From an uncultured candidate division Zixibacteria bacterium (lineage in GTDB: Bacteria > Zixibacteria > MSB-5A5 > GN15 > FEB-12), in contig CAVTJJ010000004.1 of NCBI GenBank assembly GCA_963735035.1, positions 1 to 64,000 on the forward strand: a DNA stretch of 64,000 nucleotides, in the 5' to 3' direction. The position numbers and the translations under genes are program-made. Of the stretch, positions 1 through 6,933 are shown piece after piece. Every line of letters begins with the position of its first letter. The first letter of the stretch is position 1. A model generated the notes under the pieces. That model had not been told where the DNA came from. It saw only the letters and a program-made list of their open reading frames with translations, and did no database searches.

Positions 1-41
1 CTGACGCCACCTCGGTTCAAGTTTCAAAGAGCGCTTACTCT

Positions 42-345
42 GTCAGGCTGAGCCTGTCGAAGCCCGACATCCAATCATCGTCATGCCCCGGCTCCCTTTA
101 GTCATGCCCCGGCTCGACCTTGGGTCATGCCCCGGCTTGACCGGGGCTGCCAAGGGTTGTGGGCGACTCACGTAGGGCAGAACCCCTGGGCCTGCACGCC
201 GCGGCGAGGTTCTGCCATCTATTCAACATGCGTAGGTCAGGCGGACTTGACGCCTGACACTGCCATCAAGATGTCAGGCCCCAAGTAGGCCTGACCTACA
301 AGGCTTTCGACTGATCTGTGGGCGGCAGACGTCCTCGTCTGCCCC
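42..345. repeat. Mosaic cluster of REP-like palindromes
   Basis: GTCAGGCTGAGCCTGTCGAAGCCC, three TCATGCCCCGGCT half-units, GTAGGGCAGAACCCC..GGTTCTGCC, the GTAGGTCAGG..CCTGACCTAC doublet and GTGGGCGGCAGACG..CGTCTGCC; each recurs elsewhere in the window. Confidence 0.85.
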
Positions 346-685
346 ATTCACCTTCGGCCAAAAAGTCCCTACGCATCTCAAACTACCACTCCCGCAGGCT
401 GTTGTCAAATGCCGGATAGACAGCCCCTAACCCCATGCCCCACCGGGGTAACCGGAAATCTGCTTGACCAAACCTGATCAAACGGGTATTCTTTGACAAG
501 ACAGAGACATTTTCCAGCTTTGGATTTTCACTACTTACCGTAGTCGTTTGCGACGCACATGATTTCGCGACGCGCGGGGTCGGCGTCACACACTATCATT
601 GCTTCAGGCTGTTCTCGCTTATGGAGCCGGTCTTGTCAAACGTAGAAATCTATTTTGTGGCATAATTAGAACCAAGGAGAAACGT

Positions 686-2584
686 ATGAAACTGTTCACC
701 GTACTTCTATCGGCGTTGTTTATTCTGACAGCCGCACTCGTATCGGCATCAGACGTGCCCCGGCTGCTCAGCTATCAGGGTACTCTGACTAACGGTTCCG
801 GCACGCCGTTGTCTAATGCGACGGTCACGGTTCAGTTCACCATCTACGATGACATGAACGGCGGGAATATCAAATGGACCGAAGCCCAAAGCGTCACCAC
901 CGACGCCAGCGGGTTGTTCGCCGTGCTTCTCGGCAGCAGCACCCCGGTTCCGGATACGGCGTTTAGCGGCGTTAGTCGCTGGTTGAGTGTGAGAGTTGGG
1001 GCTGATCCTGAAATGAATCCGAGAATGAGAATCGTGTCGACCGCTTATGCCTATCAGGCGTTGCGGGCGGACACCGCTCAGTTCGCTCTCGGCGTGGCGG
1101 GCTCGCACTGGCTGGTGGTGGATTCTGTTTTGTACACGGATCATCTTCTGGGTCTGGCGCGCGGCAATGCCGGCAATGCCATCTACGGAAATGACAAGTA
1201 CGCTTCGGTTAATTTCGGCGTCGCCTGCACCACCGGCACGTCCGGACAGTACTGGAGCGCGGCCACGGTAACCGGAGGACAAGACAACACTGCAGGAGGC
1301 TACGGCAGCTTCATCGGCGGGGGTAGCCATAATCAGGCTACGGCCGAGCACAGTCTCGTCACAGGCGGTGCGAACAACAGTTCGACAGGACAATGGAGTA
1401 CGGTAGGGGGCGGCTGGCAGAACATAGCCGGAAGTTACGGCACCTCTGTCGGTGGCGGCACCAACAGTGCGGCCTGGGCCACATTCGGTGGTGTGGCTGC
1501 GGGATATTACAATCAGGCCGGTGATGACTATGCCGACACGGCTGCTTTCGTAGGTGGCGGTAACAACAACCGGGTGACCGCCAAATACAGCACGATCGGC
1601 GGCGGCAAGGACAATTCGGTCAGCAACTTCTGGTCAACTATCGGCGGCGGAAATCAGAATAACGCCAGCGGCTGGACTTCTACTATCGGCGGCGGCGTGT
1701 GGAACACGGCCACAGCCGACAACGCTTCTGTCGGCGGCGGTTTCCAGAATGCGGCCGGCGGACCGATTTCTACTATTGGCGGCGGATACCAAAACCGCAC
1801 CTCCGGTGCTAACTGTGTCGTGGCGGGAGGCGCCAATAACCTCGCCTCGGGTTGGAACGCCACGGTCGGCGGCGGATATCTCGATTCCGCCACTGGTGAT
1901 ATCAGTGTTGTCGCGGGCGGTCTCGACAACACCGCCTCAGGATACGGCGCCGTGGTAGGTGGCGGCGAAGCTCATGTCAACGCGGGCGGATATTCGGTTA
2001 TCCCGGGTGGAGCGAATGACACTCTGGGCACGGGGGCTTACTATTCCTTCCTCTTCGGCTACCAGTCGTACCTGAATACCAACTACCAGGCCGTCTTCTT
2101 CAACGGCCGCAATCCAGGTCGGCTCGGCATCAATCGTGACGATCGTGACGGCGGTATCTGGTATCCGATTCATGTCGGCACCAACACCAGCAACGGCAAC
2201 GGCGCTTATCTGACTCCGGGCGGAGTCTGGACCAGCACCAGTTCGAAGGAAACCAAGGAAGGGTTCGAGCCGGTCGACAGTCGCGAACTGCTCGAGAAAC
2301 TGGCCGACCTTCCGGTGGAATCGTGGCAGTACAAGAATAGCACCGAACGCCACATCGGCCCGGTCGCCGAAGATTTCACGTCGGCGTTTGACGTCGGCAC
2401 CACGAACGAAGACGGCACCCGCGACAGTCTGCATATTTCTTCCAACGATGTCGCCGGCGTGGCGTTGGTAGCCATCAAGGAACTGTATCAGCAGAATCGC
2501 GATCTGGTAAAGCAGAACGCCGAGTTGAGTAGCCAACTCAAAGAGCTGGATCAGAAAGTAAGAGAGCTACAGGCTCGTAAGTAG
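686..2584 (+). CDS. Secreted fibre-like protein with GGGxxNxA repeats and C-terminal intramolecular chaperone (peptidase S74-like) domain
   Basis: AAGGAG RBS before ATG 686; signal peptide; VPRLLSYQGTL N-domain; many IGGGxxNxA beta-roll repeats; SS...KE..., W.YK, HIGPVAEDF motif followed by a coiled coil. Confidence 0.8.
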   Translation: MKLFTVLLSALFILTAALVSASDVPRLLSYQGTLTNGSGTPLSNATVTVQFTIYDDMNGGNIKWTEAQSVTTDASGLFAVLLGSSTPVPDTAFSGVSRWLSVRVGADPEMNPRMRIVSTAYAYQALRADTAQFALGVAGSHWLVVDSVLYTDHLLGLARGNAGNAIYGNDKYASVNFGVACTTGTSGQYWSAATVTGGQDNTAGGYGSFIGGGSHNQATAEHSLVTGGANNSSTGQWSTVGGGWQNIAGSYGTSVGGGTNSAAWATFGGVAAGYYNQAGDDYADTAAFVGGGNNNRVTAKYSTIGGGKDNSVSNFWSTIGGGNQNNASGWTSTIGGGVWNTATADNASVGGGFQNAAGGPISTIGGGYQNRTSGANCVVAGGANNLASGWNATVGGGYLDSATGDISVVAGGLDNTASGYGAVVGGGEAHVNAGGYSVIPGGANDTLGTGAYYSFLFGYQSYLNTNYQAVFFNGRNPGRLGINRDDRDGGIWYPIHVGTNTSNGNGAYLTPGGVWTSTSSKETKEGFEPVDSRELLEKLADLPVESWQYKNSTERHIGPVAEDFTSAFDVGTTNEDGTRDSLHISSNDVAGVALVAIKELYQQNRDLVKQNAELSSQLKELDQKVRELQARK

Positions 2585-2614
2585 ACCACGCTACGAATGG
2601 TAAAGGAGATTAGA

Positions 2615-3145
2615 ATGCGATTCAAATCGATACTACCGTACGCGGCCGTGGTTGTCATGCTGGCGGCACCGCTGGCGCGCGCCGAAGATGATACGTCGCT
2701 GCCGACTGCGGCCCCCGACTCGGGTGAGCGTATCAACCGTCAGGTGATGGCGTCGGGCGGCGCTGTGAACCTGAGTTCGGCGAATTATCATATGAGCGCG
2801 ACCGCCGGGCAGACCTCAGTCGGTCGCGCCGCGTCGGCGAATTACCGGGGCAATTTCGGCTTCTGGCAGACCCTGCATGCCCCCGGCTGTTGTAACGGCC
2901 GCGTCGGCGACGCCAACGGCATTGGCGGCGATGAACCGACTATCGGCGATGTCTCGAGCATGATTGATGCGAAGTTCATCTCGGGATCGTGCACAGGTGT
3001 GATTGCATGTCTGTCTGAGGCCGACATCAATCAAACTGGCGGTGCCAACCCGACCTGTGATGACATCACGATCGGTGACATCTCGATACTGATTGATTAC
3101 TTGTTTATCACGGGCCCGACACTCGGCCTGCACAATTGCCTGTGA
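2615..3145 (+). CDS. Secreted protein with a SGG..GQT..GFW domain and a Cys-rich dockerin-like C-terminus
   Basis: AAGGAG RBS; signal peptide; GCCNGRVGDANG..IGDVS / ADINQ..IGDISILIDYLF duplicated Ca-binding loop. Confidence 0.75.
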   Translation: MRFKSILPYAAVVVMLAAPLARAEDDTSLPTAAPDSGERINRQVMASGGAVNLSSANYHMSATAGQTSVGRAASANYRGNFGFWQTLHAPGCCNGRVGDANGIGGDEPTIGDVSSMIDAKFISGSCTGVIACLSEADINQTGGANPTCDDITIGDISILIDYLFITGPTLGLHNCL

Positions 3146-3179
3146 TGTATGTAGTGTGTGTACGGTGATGCCTCCTCTT

Positions 3180-3726
3180 TGTCTTGCCCCGGTTTAGCCG
3201 GGGGACCCAAGGGTTGAGTAAACCGTGCCCGGCAGATGTCCACATCTGCCGACTTATGTGCATATACCGCATGTACTGTCATGCCCCGGCGTCTCTTCTC
3301 TGTCTTGCCCCGGCTTGACCGGGGCACACAAATTTGATCGGCAGGCCTCTGTGCCTGCCGTCCGGGTGGCCCACCATTTATGGTGGGATGGAACATTACG
3401 GAGCGCAAGCTCTGTCACCCCGGTGTAAGGGCTTGTTGAAAAACTCCCCCGAATGTTGTTGCGTCAGGTCTTGCGCCGCCACAGGCGGCGTGTGACCTGA
3501 CACGTTGCAGCGACTTAGGGAATCACCATCTTGCGTGGAATGATACGAATTGAGCCAAGACAGGCTTTTTCAACACTCCCGTAAACCGGGGCCCAGTTGT
3601 GTTGGAAAGAACGCCGACGCCAATGTTCGAGCTCTCACAGCGAAGGGAGAAGTCGGTCATGGCGGCATTAACTTAGCGATCACAACTGGGTCCTGGCTTC
3701 CGCCAGAATTACGGGACTGGCGTCCC
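3180..3726. repeat. REP cluster including a ~165-bp composite repeat homologous to 52746-52910 (reverse) and partly to 14413-14560
   Basis: Direct sequence comparison: TCTGTCACCCCGGTGTAAACCGGGGCCCAGTT ... AACTGGGTC(C/T)TGGCTTCCGCCAG. Confidence 0.85.
3429..3580. mobile_element. 152-bp MITE with 15-bp TIRs and 4-bp GTAA target duplication
   Basis: GGGCTTGTTGAAAAA versus reverse complement GGGAGTGTTGAAAAA (13/15 identical); GTAA at 3425-3428 and 3581-3584; empty allele at ~52877-52905. Confidence 0.85.
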
Positions 3727-3844
3727 ATTTCAAGACCCCACCCGCAAGTAACTATGATACTGTTCGTGATTTGAGCCTCTGTTCGGACAAGGTATCGTAT
3801 CGTGGTCTGAAGACAACGATAGATCCTTAGAACAGGAGGCTCAG

Positions 3845-4903
3845 ATGAGAAGGTACGAAGTTGGAGCGGAAGTGGGAAGTGCTGTTTTTGTTGGCGTGGA
3901 TGTTCACAAGCGTCAGTGGTTTGTCACGGTGAGGACGTTAGAAGTGGAACTGTTCTGTGGCAGCATTAACGGGGATTGGGCGTCTTTGCGGTGTTTGCTG
4001 GATCGGTATGATCCTGGGTGTGTGTCCGTGGTTTACGAGGCGGGTTTTTCTGGTTTTTGGCTGCACGACTGTGTGGTAGCGTGGGGTGGTCAGTGCGTAG
4101 TAACGCCGCCGAGCTTGGTGCCGATGGCCTACGGTAATCGGGTGAAGACGGACAAGCGGGATAGCCGGAAGCTGGCCTGGTTGCTGTCGTTAGGGTTGTT
4201 GAAGAAGGTCTGGGTTCCGGATGAGAGTCAGCGGGGTCACCGAGAGGTCTTACGTCGTCGTCGTCAATTGGTTCAAGATCGGGTACGTCTTCAGAGTCGG
4301 ATCAAATCGGAGTTGGCCTTATATGGTATTTCAGTGTGCAGTGGGACGGGTCGGTGGACCGGTCCGTTATTAGAGCGTCTGAGACAGGTGTGTTTGGCAG
4401 ATGTCTGGGCTCAGGCGAGCTACGAGCGGTTGTTGGAGATGTACGATCTGGTAAGTAACCAGCTGGCGTTGCAGACACGACTGTTGCGGGAGTTGTCACG
4501 ACTGCCACAGTATCGTGATCGAGTTCGGCTGTTAAGTAGCGTTCCCGGCATAGGGGTTATTACGGCGATGGCTCTGCTGTTGGAATTGCATGAGGTCGGT
4601 CGTTTTGGACGGGCTGAGCAATTGGCGGCTTATGTGGGACTGACACCTTCGCAGTATTCCAGCGGTGATCATGTCCGGATGGGTCGGATTACCGGCACGG
4701 GCAACAGCTATCTTCGGGGCTTGTTAGTGGAATCGTCCTGGATTGCCGTTCGGAAGGACCCACACTTACAACTGGTCTATAACCGGATCAAGCAACGTGC
4801 CGGCGGCAAACGAGCCATAGTGGCGGTAGCTCGACGACTGGTCTTGGCAGTCAGGCGGGTTCTGCTTGATAACGTTGCCTATGAGCCGTGTGCGGCCGCC
4901 TAA
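3845..4903 (+). CDS. IS110 family transposase/recombinase (DEDD RuvC-like + Tnp20 domain)
   Basis: GVDVHK, YEAG, KTDKRDS, VPGIG, LAAYVGLTPSQYSSG, AIVAVARRL motifs; AGGAGG RBS. Confidence 0.96.
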   Translation: MRRYEVGAEVGSAVFVGVDVHKRQWFVTVRTLEVELFCGSINGDWASLRCLLDRYDPGCVSVVYEAGFSGFWLHDCVVAWGGQCVVTPPSLVPMAYGNRVKTDKRDSRKLAWLLSLGLLKKVWVPDESQRGHREVLRRRRQLVQDRVRLQSRIKSELALYGISVCSGTGRWTGPLLERLRQVCLADVWAQASYERLLEMYDLVSNQLALQTRLLRELSRLPQYRDRVRLLSSVPGIGVITAMALLLELHEVGRFGRAEQLAAYVGLTPSQYSSGDHVRMGRITGTGNSYLRGLLVESSWIAVRKDPHLQLVYNRIKQRAGGKRAIVAVARRLVLAVRRVLLDNVAYEPCAAA

Positions 4904-5113
4904 GATAACCAAGGAGTCGGAACCGTACCAAGCTAACGCGAGAACAGCGACCCACCCGCTGTGGCTCGGGCCAACCGAGACCACGTCCGCAAGTCTGCTG
5001 CCTCGCCAGGTCACGAGCGGATACATTGCCTGTGGCGCTGCCAGTCAGCGACCACGAATAGCAGACTGGTTCGAGTCCTATGCCTGAACAGAAAGCCCTT
5101 GACACAGTACATA
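4904..5113 (+). ncRNA. Candidate bridge RNA / seekRNA
   Basis: ~210-nt structured non-coding end downstream of the IS110 transposase; contains CCCACCCGCTG (4951-4961) matching the target site and ATAGCA (5058-5063) matching the donor junction. Confidence 0.65.
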
Positions 5114-5184
5114 GCAGCGGGTGGGCCACCCACCGCGGCGAGGTTTCGACACTCACGGCGGCAGAACCACCAATGGGTTCTGCC

Positions 5185-5676
5185 CTACTTGTCGAACATG
5201 TCCGCTTCCGAGTCGATCACTCTTGTACCGGCTAAGTAATCGTGGAGGCACCTTCGCTCCCTTCCGAAGATGAACAAGATATCCGCTACCGCAAACAAAC
5301 TGCCGGCGAAAGGAACCGCGTACATGAATGATGGCACGGCATACCGAAGTCCCGCGGTTCGAGCCAGGCTTGGAGTCTCTCCGGTGAGAAGAACGATTCT
5401 CGTTTTCACAAGATACTTGCCGATTGTCTGTCCTCTCTTGTGCAGCAGGTATCCGTGTAATGAAAGAAATACTGCGAGACCGAATGTTGCCCATGCAATC
5501 GACTTAGCCAGTGTCGGATCGGTATCGAACTCCAACCACCCGCTGAGCAACATGGCCACGCCTATCGGTGCTTGAATTAAGCCATCAAGAAGTGCTCCCC
5601 CAAGCCTCTTTCCCCGGCTTGCTAATTGCGGGTAGTCACCGACCGCACTACTGATGCCTTCCAGTTCTCGCTTCAT
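5185..5676 (-). CDS. RDD family membrane protein
   Basis: LASRGKRLGGALLD, GQTIGK, R.LHDYLAGTRV motifs. Confidence 0.9.
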   Translation of the reverse strand: MKRELEGISSAVGDYPQLASRGKRLGGALLDGLIQAPIGVAMLLSGWLEFDTDPTLAKSIAWATFGLAVFLSLHGYLLHKRGQTIGKYLVKTRIVLLTGETPSLARTAGLRYAVPSFMYAVPFAGSLFAVADILFIFGRERRCLHDYLAGTRVIDSEADMFDK

Positions 5677-5979
5677 TGATTGGGACCTCGCGAGGTAATA
5701 TATCGCCAGTTGTCTCTTTTTCCAAGCTGATTTTCTTCTCCTGAAGGTGCACAGACTAAGTTGTTTCGCCTAGCTGTTGACATATGTTCTCGTACGCAAG
5801 CGAAGACGTGGTGGACGAGGACGCCCACCACGCACACAAATAAACGAAGGCCGGACAAGAATTTGTCCGGCCTGGGACGGGCCTTGCTGATAAGGCCCGG
5901 TCTGTTTTGGTTGCGCAGTAGATGTGGGCATCTACCGGCCACTTCATGTGAGCCTGCCACTGAGGACCGGCCGTAAGTT

Positions 5980-6933
5980 CTACGCGCCCCCCGACCCCGC
6001 CGTTGGTGATTTCTTGGCCGGCTCAGGGCTGTTTGTTTTGATCCCTTCCACCATCGCCGACAACGCCGACATAATCCCGCTCGCCTCATACGGCATGAAG
6101 ATCTTGTTGGCGGTTCCCTGCGCCAGATGCGGCAACATCTCCAAATACTTGAGTGTTATCAGCTTGTCGTCCGGCTGACCCTCGTGGATAGCGCCAAAAA
6201 CGGTCGCGATCGCTTGCCCCTCACCCTCGGCCACCGCAATCTGACGGTAGCGCTCGGCATCAGCCCGCCGCCTGACCGCCTCGGCGCCGCCCTCAGCTTC
6301 GAGAATCTGCGCCAGTTTGGAGCCCTCAGCCTTGGTAATTTCCGACTGCTTCAGCGCCTCGGCGTCGAGAATCGTGGCGCGCTTGTCACGCTCGGCTTTC
6401 ATCTGACGGCTCATAGCGTCGGTGATGTCGGCCGGCGGGTCAATGCGCTGCAGTTCGATTCGGTTGACCTTCACGCCCCACTTGTCGGTGGCCGTGTCCA
6501 TCACATTGCGCAGTTGCAGGTTGATCTGATCGCGCGACGACAGACAGGCGTCCAGATCCATTTCGCCGATCACGTTACGCAGGTTGGTCTGCGCCAGTTT
6601 GGTGGCGGCGTGAACATAGTTGTAAATTTCATAGCGCGAGCGGAACGGATCGGTCACCTGGAAATAGATGATCGCGTCGACTTCAACACCGACGTTGTCC
6701 TTGGTGATCACCAGTTGCGCGGGCACGTCGATCACCACCTCGCGCATATCAACTTTGGCGACCGTGTCAAAAAATGGCAGGATCAGGTTGAGCCCCGGGT
6801 CGAGCACCCGCTGGAACTTGCCCAGCCGTTCCACCAGGCCCTTTTCGTACGGCCGGATGATTCGCACCGACATGGTAACCAGCGCGAACGACAGTACGAC
6901 GATGACTCCTATCAGTATGGTGATTTCAGGCAC
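5980..6933 (-). CDS. SPFH/band 7 (QmcA/stomatin-like) protein
   Basis: N-terminal TM helix, VERLGKF, VITKDNV, QMKAERDKRA motifs. Confidence 0.95.
   Translation of the reverse strand: MPEITILIGVIVVLSFALVTMSVRIIRPYEKGLVERLGKFQRVLDPGLNLILPFFDTVAKVDMREVVIDVPAQLVITKDNVGVEVDAIIYFQVTDPFRSRYEIYNYVHAATKLAQTNLRNVIGEMDLDACLSSRDQINLQLRNVMDTATDKWGVKVNRIELQRIDPPADITDAMSRQMKAERDKRATILDAEALKQSEITKAEGSKLAQILEAEGGAEAVRRRADAERYRQIAVAEGEGQAIATVFGAIHEGQPDDKLITLKYLEMLPHLAQGTANKIFMPYEASGIMSALSAMVEGIKTNSPEPAKKSPTAGSGGA

Follow-up and report, generated by a model that had tools for sequence, protein, structure and literature searches.

An IS110-family element in a REP hairpin whose 3' non-coding tail very probably encodes a two-module guide RNA

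The window analysed here is a stretch of 64,000 nucleotides, and its positions 3749-5117 are in all likelihood an active IS1111-type member of the IS110 family, with a 3' non-coding region encoding a two-module seekRNA/bridge RNA. Judged from the sequence, this non-coding tail very probably encodes a guide RNA that matches the palindromic insertion site of the element and the element's own end. The features of the element and of its target, all on the + strand of the window, are as follows.

3737-3748 (+): left half of the REP target, CCCACCCGCA, with the AG core (3747-3748); common to all 5 copies
3749-3764 (+): left end of the element, TAAC plus the subterminal inverted repeat CTATGATACTGT (3752-3763); from the sequence, the end being conserved in 13 homologues
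3769-3846 (+): 5' UTR hairpin, ATTTGAGCCTC / GAGGCTCAGAT; from the inverted-repeat listing, arms seen in homologues
3845-4903 (+): IS110-family DEDD transposase gene, 352 aa, motif GLTPSQYSSG; from Pfam, NCBIfam and PDB matches
4937-5082 (+): predicted bridge/seekRNA of two modules (~146 nt); extent of the covariance-model match
4939-5005 (+): predicted target-binding module, with a closing stem (4939-4949 / 4996-5005), an inner stem UGUGG (4960-4964) / CCACG (4981-4985) and an apical hairpin (4965-4980); from RNAalifold and pair counts
4951-4961 (+): putative target guide 1, CCCACCCG, which would pair with the top strand of the right target, CU facing the AG core; from flank comparison
4987-4994 (+): putative target guide 2, CCGCA-AG, equal to the top strand of the left target plus core, which would pair with the bottom strand; from flank comparison
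5008-5079 (+): predicted second (donor) module, with an imperfect closing stem (~5008-5018 / 5069-5079), an inner stem (5031-5039 / 5047-5056) and a 5' loop strand (~5019-5030)
5058-5064 (+): putative donor guide ATAGCAG, identical to the 7 bases that close the right end, core included; from right-end covariation
5099-5117 (+): right end, with TTGACA (5099-5104), the subterminal repeat ACAGTACATAG (5104-5114), C5115 and AG (5116-5117)
5118-5130 (+): right half of the REP target, CGGGTGGGCCACC; common to all 5 copies

The boundaries of the element were established by comparison of its copies. A search of the genome with positions 3600-5300 returned five full-length copies at 100% identity and a partial copy at a contig end. 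The region 3737-5130 is identical in four of the copies, the fifth differing at 3 positions; the outer flanks are unrelated among the five, and the shared block is 3737-5130, which starts with CCCACCCGCAAG/TAACTATG and finishes with CATAGC/AGCGGGTGGGCCACC. AG is found at both junctions (3747-3748 and 5116-5117), where nothing else is duplicated, and was therefore considered as the crossover core. Given the extent of the shared block and the presence of uninterrupted hairpin repeats elsewhere, the element proper is 3749-5117, that is 1,369 bp with the AG core included at its right end. The original prediction had placed the right boundary at 5113, which has to be moved to 5117; it had also taken 5115-5125 as flanking DNA, which holds from 5116 (the AG core) onwards, base 5115 (C) belonging to the element. 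Site-specific insertion without duplication beyond a short core, a trait of the IS110 family, is thus observed in five copies at the same 15-nt site, and the element is apparently active.

All five full copies sit in the loop of a REP hairpin, CCCACCCGCA-AG-CGGGTGGG, in the same orientation (5/5), and uninterrupted hairpin repeats of the type CCCACCCGCAAGCGGGTGGGCCACC, with slight differences, occur at other places in this genome. When the flanks are rejoined, a perfect CCGCAAGCGGGTGGG, the 15-mer covered by the guides, is restored in 5/5 copies. Elsewhere in the 3.6-Mb genome, searched on both strands, the 15-mer is never matched perfectly, 12 sites differing from it at one position and 69 at two. 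The five perfect 15-nt sites are all filled, and the 12 single-mismatch sites as well as the opposite orientation of the palindrome are empty. Further REP subfamilies depart from the target by changes that are paired and compensate each other, such as CCCACCTGCAAGCAGGTGGG (~10 occurrences in the whole genome) and CCCACCGCAAGCGGTGGGGCACC (~17), and the element is found in none of them.

Several REPs elsewhere adjoin an end of the form ctttttcaacag. Immediately to the left of the occupied REP, positions 3600-3736 correspond to a repeated element of ~130 nt, with copies at 77-82% identity at no fewer than five other loci (L007-L011) and shorter pieces elsewhere; a small repeat of the non-autonomous kind is a possible explanation. 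Window positions 1-4418 have a diverged duplicate in the last 8 kb of another contig, C3 (91.7% identity over 1-3203, 97-98% over 3200-4418), with ~1 kb of extra sequence in between; the partial sixth copy of the element belongs to this duplicate. Either a segmental duplication or variation between strains, collapsed at the contig ends, could account for it.

The transposase gene ends with a stop codon at 4901-4903. Its product matches PF01548 (E 1.4e-12) and PF02371 (E 2.4e-25) and has the N-terminal DEDD/RuvC-like domain and the C-terminal Transposase_20 domain of the IS110 family. It scores 226.7 bits, for a cut-off of 140, with the NCBIfam model NF033542 ("IS110 family RNA-guided transposase"). 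In the PDB, its C-terminal part (residues 219-347) matches the transposases of ISCro4 (9t56) and IS621 (8wt6) with E ~1e-11. The best matches in plasmid records reach ~37% identity at most, named relatives there being the ISSso6 family (34.0%, residues 5-299) and the ISEc45 family (33.1%); matches to the IS621 family in these records span residues 187-304 only.

Non-coding DNA is distributed unevenly within the element, with 96 nt on the 5' side (3749-3844) versus ~212 nt on the 3' side (the tail 4904-5115, followed by the AG core at 5116-5117). The subterminal inverted repeats, CTATG(A)TACTGT (3752-3763) and ACAGTACATAG (5104-5114), share 11 matches with one 1-nt gap and lie 3 nt (left) and 1 nt (right) inside the core; the pair was read by eye from the sequence, the gapless repeat finder not having listed it. 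The longer 3' non-coding region, the subterminal inverted repeats (7-17 bp in the group) and the sequence GLTPSQYSSG, which fits the GL-P----S(T)G motif used to define the IS1111 group (PMC11187229), are all features of that group. Together with a top-strand target match on the 5' side, these sequence features point to an IS1111-type element.

No sigma-70-like promoter or terminator-like site was found in 3600-5300. When the right and left ends are joined, as in an excised circle, TTGACA (5099-5104) is placed 17 nt from TATGAT (3753-3758), and the two would serve as -35 and -10 of a promoter. The same spacing is seen in 13/13 homologues, with TTGAC in 11/13, and promoters formed at the circle junction have been described for ISEc11 and IS621 (PMC11187229, PMC11208158). 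The arms of the 5' UTR hairpin (3769-3779 / 3836-3846, 91% complementary) span the start codon of the transposase gene together with its ribosome-binding site, an arrangement that looks like translational occlusion; both arms recur in homologues.

Homologous elements were collected by searching 285 genomes from this phylum with the protein, and 53 of them had a match at E <=1e-20. Relatives with 50-66% transposase identity were found in 12 genomes of this phylum-wide search; the comparison set consists of 13 distinct elements with usable 3' regions, including extra copies. Among species genomes, 55 loci were found, none closer than ~45% over a full-length match. All 13 elements share the left end AGT(A/C)ACTATG, the right end TTG...ACATAGC(A/G)G and the 3' scaffold, and their flanks differ. 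These homologues are related and counts made on them are not independent; they amount to ~7 target classes (about seven independent retargeting events) and 5 end classes. The target is a palindrome in several of the target classes, which number at least 7.

The 3' regions share a conserved fold. With 13 sequences, RNAalifold returned a 10-bp closing stem, an internal loop and a UGUGG/CCACG stem under a variable hairpin, followed by a second UGUGG/CCACG stem with its own hairpin. Compensatory changes occur in 15 of the 24 pairs of this consensus (13 elements), and in 8 of the 10 pairs of the closing stem of the target module. Pairing holds in 96.8% of the cells of the trimmed alignment and falls to 26.6-48.1% once partners are shifted by 1-3 columns, and neither the observed pairing nor the covariation score was reached by any of 500 shuffles; the "further pair types" measure is unremarkable (reached by 164/500 shuffles), and so is the folding of the element taken singly (-56.2 kcal/mol, z = -1.44, 19/200 shuffles folding equally well). 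In the donor module the inner stem covaries. The closing stem of this module is out of register in the MAFFT alignment, and its support comes from single-sequence folds, in which it appears for 10/13 homologues and in the element's own full-length fold.

Three hairpin or guide segments of the original prediction have to be redrawn on this consensus. A hairpin ACAGCG/CGCTGT (4944-4949 / 4957-4962) can be drawn, but is not the conserved fold: 4944-4949 pairs instead with ~4996-5000, in a stem with compensatory changes. CGCTGC is present at 5036-5041, as part of the apical stem of module 2, and is considered as scaffold, not as a guide. Likewise, the strings of the GACT/AGTC hairpin exist (5064-5067 / 5074-5077), but the 5064-5077 hairpin is not conserved in homologues and would be scaffold and not guide.

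A covariance model built on these sequences (R1, 147 positions) scores the element at 113.1 bits (E 1.4e-27). Its genome matches (n=5) all lie within copies of the element, so that no orphan RNA gene is detected. Among 62 other loci, 10 are matched at E <=0.01, some of them with transposases only ~35-38% identical, and when the ISSso6 and ISEc45 loci were searched a weak match was obtained downstream of the ISSso6 gene (8.9 bits, E 0.037). With Rfam 15 at E <=1, no match was found in 4904-5117. Over 3000-6000, Rfam 15 gave a sub-threshold match to SraC/RyeA outside the element (5838-5945, +; 31.1 bits for a gathering threshold of 37, E 0.0018), which is probably due to chance.

Both target guides were identified by comparison with the flanks. 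As originally proposed, CCCACCCGCTG (4951-4961) and 5115-5125 are exact reverse complements of each other. Counting both orientations, the 11-mer has 2 matches in the window for 0.03 expected, and at least 2 matches were seen in 0/100 shuffles. Nine of its bases are, as also noticed earlier, those of the left flank (4951-4959 equals 3737-3745), because 3737-3745 and 5117-5125 are perfectly complementary in the inverted-repeat listing. Within the 11-mer, 4951-4960 complements AGCGGGTGGG, the right target plus core. The shorter match CCGCA, placed earlier at ~4987, is part of CCGCAAG (4987-4993), a segment that varies with the left flank, and the two target matches overlap at AG.

Both strands of the first internal loop were taken by alignment column in each homologue and compared with its own flanks, anchored at the core. 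The 5' loop strand is the reverse complement of the right flank: CCCACCCGCT with AGCGGGTGGG in this element, CCCACAGCT with AGCTGTGGG in G099, AGGAATCCT with AGGATTCCT in G240 and TGTCAGGTCT with AGACCTGACA in G221. The 3' loop strand equals the left flank plus core, for example CCGCAAG, CAGCAAG, CAGGAAAG or GGGCAAG. Twelve of the 13 elements could be scored (G145 was left out, its contig ending at the core), and over these, guide 1 matches its cognate flank at 76/96 positions and guide 2 at 52/72. With one representative for each of 7 target classes, the matches are 47/56 and 31/42, for non-cognate means of 2.3 of 8 (guide 1) and 2.45 of 6 (guide 2), and the observed sums were reached by 0/1,854 derangements of the seven classes. 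Homologues with different targets hence do not keep the 11-mer, an outcome proposed earlier as refuting its role as guide had they kept it: the segment at the same position follows their own right flank, and the second segment changes with the left flank on a conserved scaffold.

Guide 2 is short and partly conserved in every element. When the reverse complement of the right flank was looked for without anchoring in each element's own non-coding region, power was low (best match >=8/10 in 13/36 cognate and 136/1,234 non-cognate comparisons), and the anchored test was used instead. Poor flank matches were obtained for G184 (3/8 in register, a 3-nt offset being needed), G009b (4/8) and G008 (5/8), and in G240 the left flanks match the guide exactly in 3/5 copies. 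At the G184 locus (L083), the right junction flank AGCAGCCATGGGG fits the guide only after a 3-nt skip, which suggests a small junction duplication or slippage, or an off-target insertion. The distant relatives at L034 and L045 have the same target guides and left flank and different right flanks, which suggests a rearrangement or deletion adjoining one copy.

The match noticed earlier runs to 11 bases because G4961 could pair with C5115, the last base of the element; on the other side, U4994 equals the first base of the left end (T3749). By analogy, G4961 and U4994 may act as handshake bases. Both bases and their partners are invariant in the close family, with the exception of G240, which mismatches.

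The donor guide was assigned by covariation with the right end. The ATAGCA string proposed earlier as donor-like belongs to ATAGCAG (5058-5064), which lies directly 3' of the second CCACG stem. ATAGCAG being invariant in the 13 close homologues, its covariation was followed in distant relatives, found by a pattern of our choice (TTG...CATAnnnG downstream of a long ORF) and comprising 38 distinct elements. An identical internal copy of the right-end 7-mer is present in 32/38 elements, and 7-mers of other classes in 10/228 non-cognate cases. By end class, the internal copy is found in 12/12 elements for ATAGCAG, 7/7 for ATAACAG, 6/6 for ATAGAAG and 5/5 for ATAAAAG, and less regularly for ATAGCGG (2/5), ATAAGGG (0/2) and ATACCTG (0/1). 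Three ATAGCGG elements have ATAGCAG as their internal sequence. At L093, L095 and L097 the right junction is CATAGCGG and the internal guide is still ATAGCAG; this difference between junction core and guide is as expected if a GG-core target was used.

On the left-end side, inspection of the homologue sequences gave no consistent partner in the 5' strand of the donor module. Candidates based on direct complementarity, on a one-base bulge or on likeness to the right-end repeat were rejected: they reach only 4-5 nt in inconsistent register, and do not covary between the TAAC and TCAC variants of the left end. Pairing of the donor loop with the circle junction is thus supported for the right-end side by the counts above, and a match to the left end was not seen by inspection.

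A mechanism can be proposed from these assignments. In module 1, the two strands of one internal loop would read the insertion site, 4951-4960 pairing with the top strand of the right target half and the AG core, and 4987-4993 with the bottom strand of the left target half and the core, so that both target guides together would specify CCGCA-AG-CGGGTGGG in the loop of the REP hairpin, whose non-palindromic loop would set the orientation of insertion. In module 2, the partner of ATAGCAG (5058-5064) in the excised circle would be the right end of the element itself, on its bottom strand, and the RNA-bound DEDD transposase would carry out recombination between circle junction and target at the AG/CT core. 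The promoter (TTGACA, 17 nt, TATGAT) that drives the transposase gene and the downstream RNA would also be assembled by circularisation. By analogy with studied members of the family, the RNA would be produced and bound by the transposase, and recombination would follow their chemistry. The idea of a guide for a programmable recombinase aimed at a symmetric REP is supported by these results, the layout matching that described for IS1111-type seekRNAs (PMC11187229).

Other explanations were weighed against a two-module guide RNA. An RNA in which module 1 alone guides, module 2 being a protein-binding scaffold and the ends being recognised through the subterminal repeats, is considered as unlikely. 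It would agree with the account of ISEc11, for which an 82-nt seekRNA with only target matches sufficed for transposition (PMC11187229), with the lack of a convincing left-end complement in the 5' strand of module 2 and with the constancy of the donor 7-mer in the close homologues, among which no covariation can be visible; but the internal copy varies along with the right-end 7-mer over five classes, and module 2 mirrors module 1, with a UGUGG/CCACG stem flanked by loop strands.

The absence of any guide RNA has far less in its favour. That the target-like segments are features of the DNA, such as a captured REP fragment or protein-binding repeats, is very improbable: a repeated palindromic target could be picked up by imprecise excision, but at the same two places in the scaffold, homologues whose targets are unrelated have the halves of their own target, the stems keep pairing through compensatory changes, which points to a folded single strand, and the protein family is documented as RNA-guided (NF033542; PMC11208160, PMC11187229). 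Hardly credible is the view that the region holds an ordinary 3' UTR structure (terminator, stabiliser or antisense regulator) or a small-protein gene, with flank matches due to chance. Mechanically predicted ORFs do overlap the region (4866-5087 and 4961-5239 on the + strand, 4851-5156 on the - strand), but there is no terminator-like site, the expectation for the 11-mer is low (0.03 per window), apical-loop indels of many lengths together with compensatory stems do not fit coding, and the flank covariation exceeded all 1,854 derangements.

The two-module reading can be extended to a joint one, which is tentative and rather doubtful as a whole: a natural retargeting series on a constant scaffold (at least 7 target classes), discrimination of single mismatches, and one-base handshakes of both target guides. 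If it holds, the occupied perfect sites and the empty near-matches would be an in vivo readout of specificity with single-mismatch discrimination, and the handshakes would map the IS1111 architecture onto that of IS621, the core being read as CT on the transposase-antisense strand. The 2024 picture of bridge RNAs and seekRNAs is unchanged, this element being an ordinary further example. It adds a well-delimited element from a lineage far from the studied ones, with boundaries, core, target and the two target guides placed to single-base precision, and twelve homologous elements showing natural reprogramming. Such sets are useful for the design and comparison of bridge/seekRNA recombinases and for the annotation of REP-associated elements in uncultured bacteria.

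Among known systems, seekRNAs have been demonstrated by Siddiquee et al. (2024) for four IS1111 members, among which ISPa11 targets a REP (PMC11187229), and in the prediction of Durrant et al. (2024), 93% of IS1111 elements have a bridge RNA in their right end (PMC11208160). By their published description, ISEc11, ISPa11 and ISKpn4 of the IS1111 group share several traits with the present element: a long non-coding region follows the transposase gene, the inverted repeats are subterminal, the GL-P----SG motif is present, a promoter forms at the circle junction, and two short matches to the target, of which the top-strand one is the more 5', overlap where insertion takes place (PMC11187229). 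The target is a REP as for ISPa11, but a different one (PMC11187229). In sequence, the element is distant (best named relatives in plasmid records ISSso6, 34.0%, and ISEc45, 33.1%), and its RNA is predicted here from the sequence.

Insertion into repeated extragenic palindromes is also reported for the Pseudomonas elements ISPpu10 and ISPpu9 (10.64898/2026.03.19.712850; PMC12288879). ISPpu10, an IS110 element of Pseudomonas putida, is described as guided by a bridge RNA, the stem-loop of the target adding specificity beyond base pairing (10.64898/2026.03.19.712850). The small RNA downstream of ISPpu9 is reported to be dispensable for transposition and to exist also as orphan copies (PMC12288879); unlike this, no orphan RNA copy is detected here by R1.

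The predicted RNA resembles the IS621 bridge RNA, as described, in its two pseudo-symmetric loops, each with a stem, a guide, a stem-loop and a guide, in that one guide would read the bottom strand left of the core and the other the top strand right of the core, in the 2-nt core (here AG on the transposase-sense strand, that is CT on the other strand), and in that a base beside the guide could pair with the donor after strand exchange, as does the IS621 handshake guide (PMC11208160; PMC11208158). It differs from that description in that the RNA is at the 3' end (5' end in IS621), that the strand matches follow each other in the opposite order with respect to the transposase gene, that the subterminal repeats are longer and that the protein aligns over residues 219-346 only (E 1.5e-11). 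The IS621 layout maps directly, with a CT core, once "top" is taken to mean the antisense strand of the transposase gene; in IS621 terms, 4951-4960 would be the left target guide and 4987-4993 the right target guide, with U4994 at the place of the handshake guide (PMC11208158).
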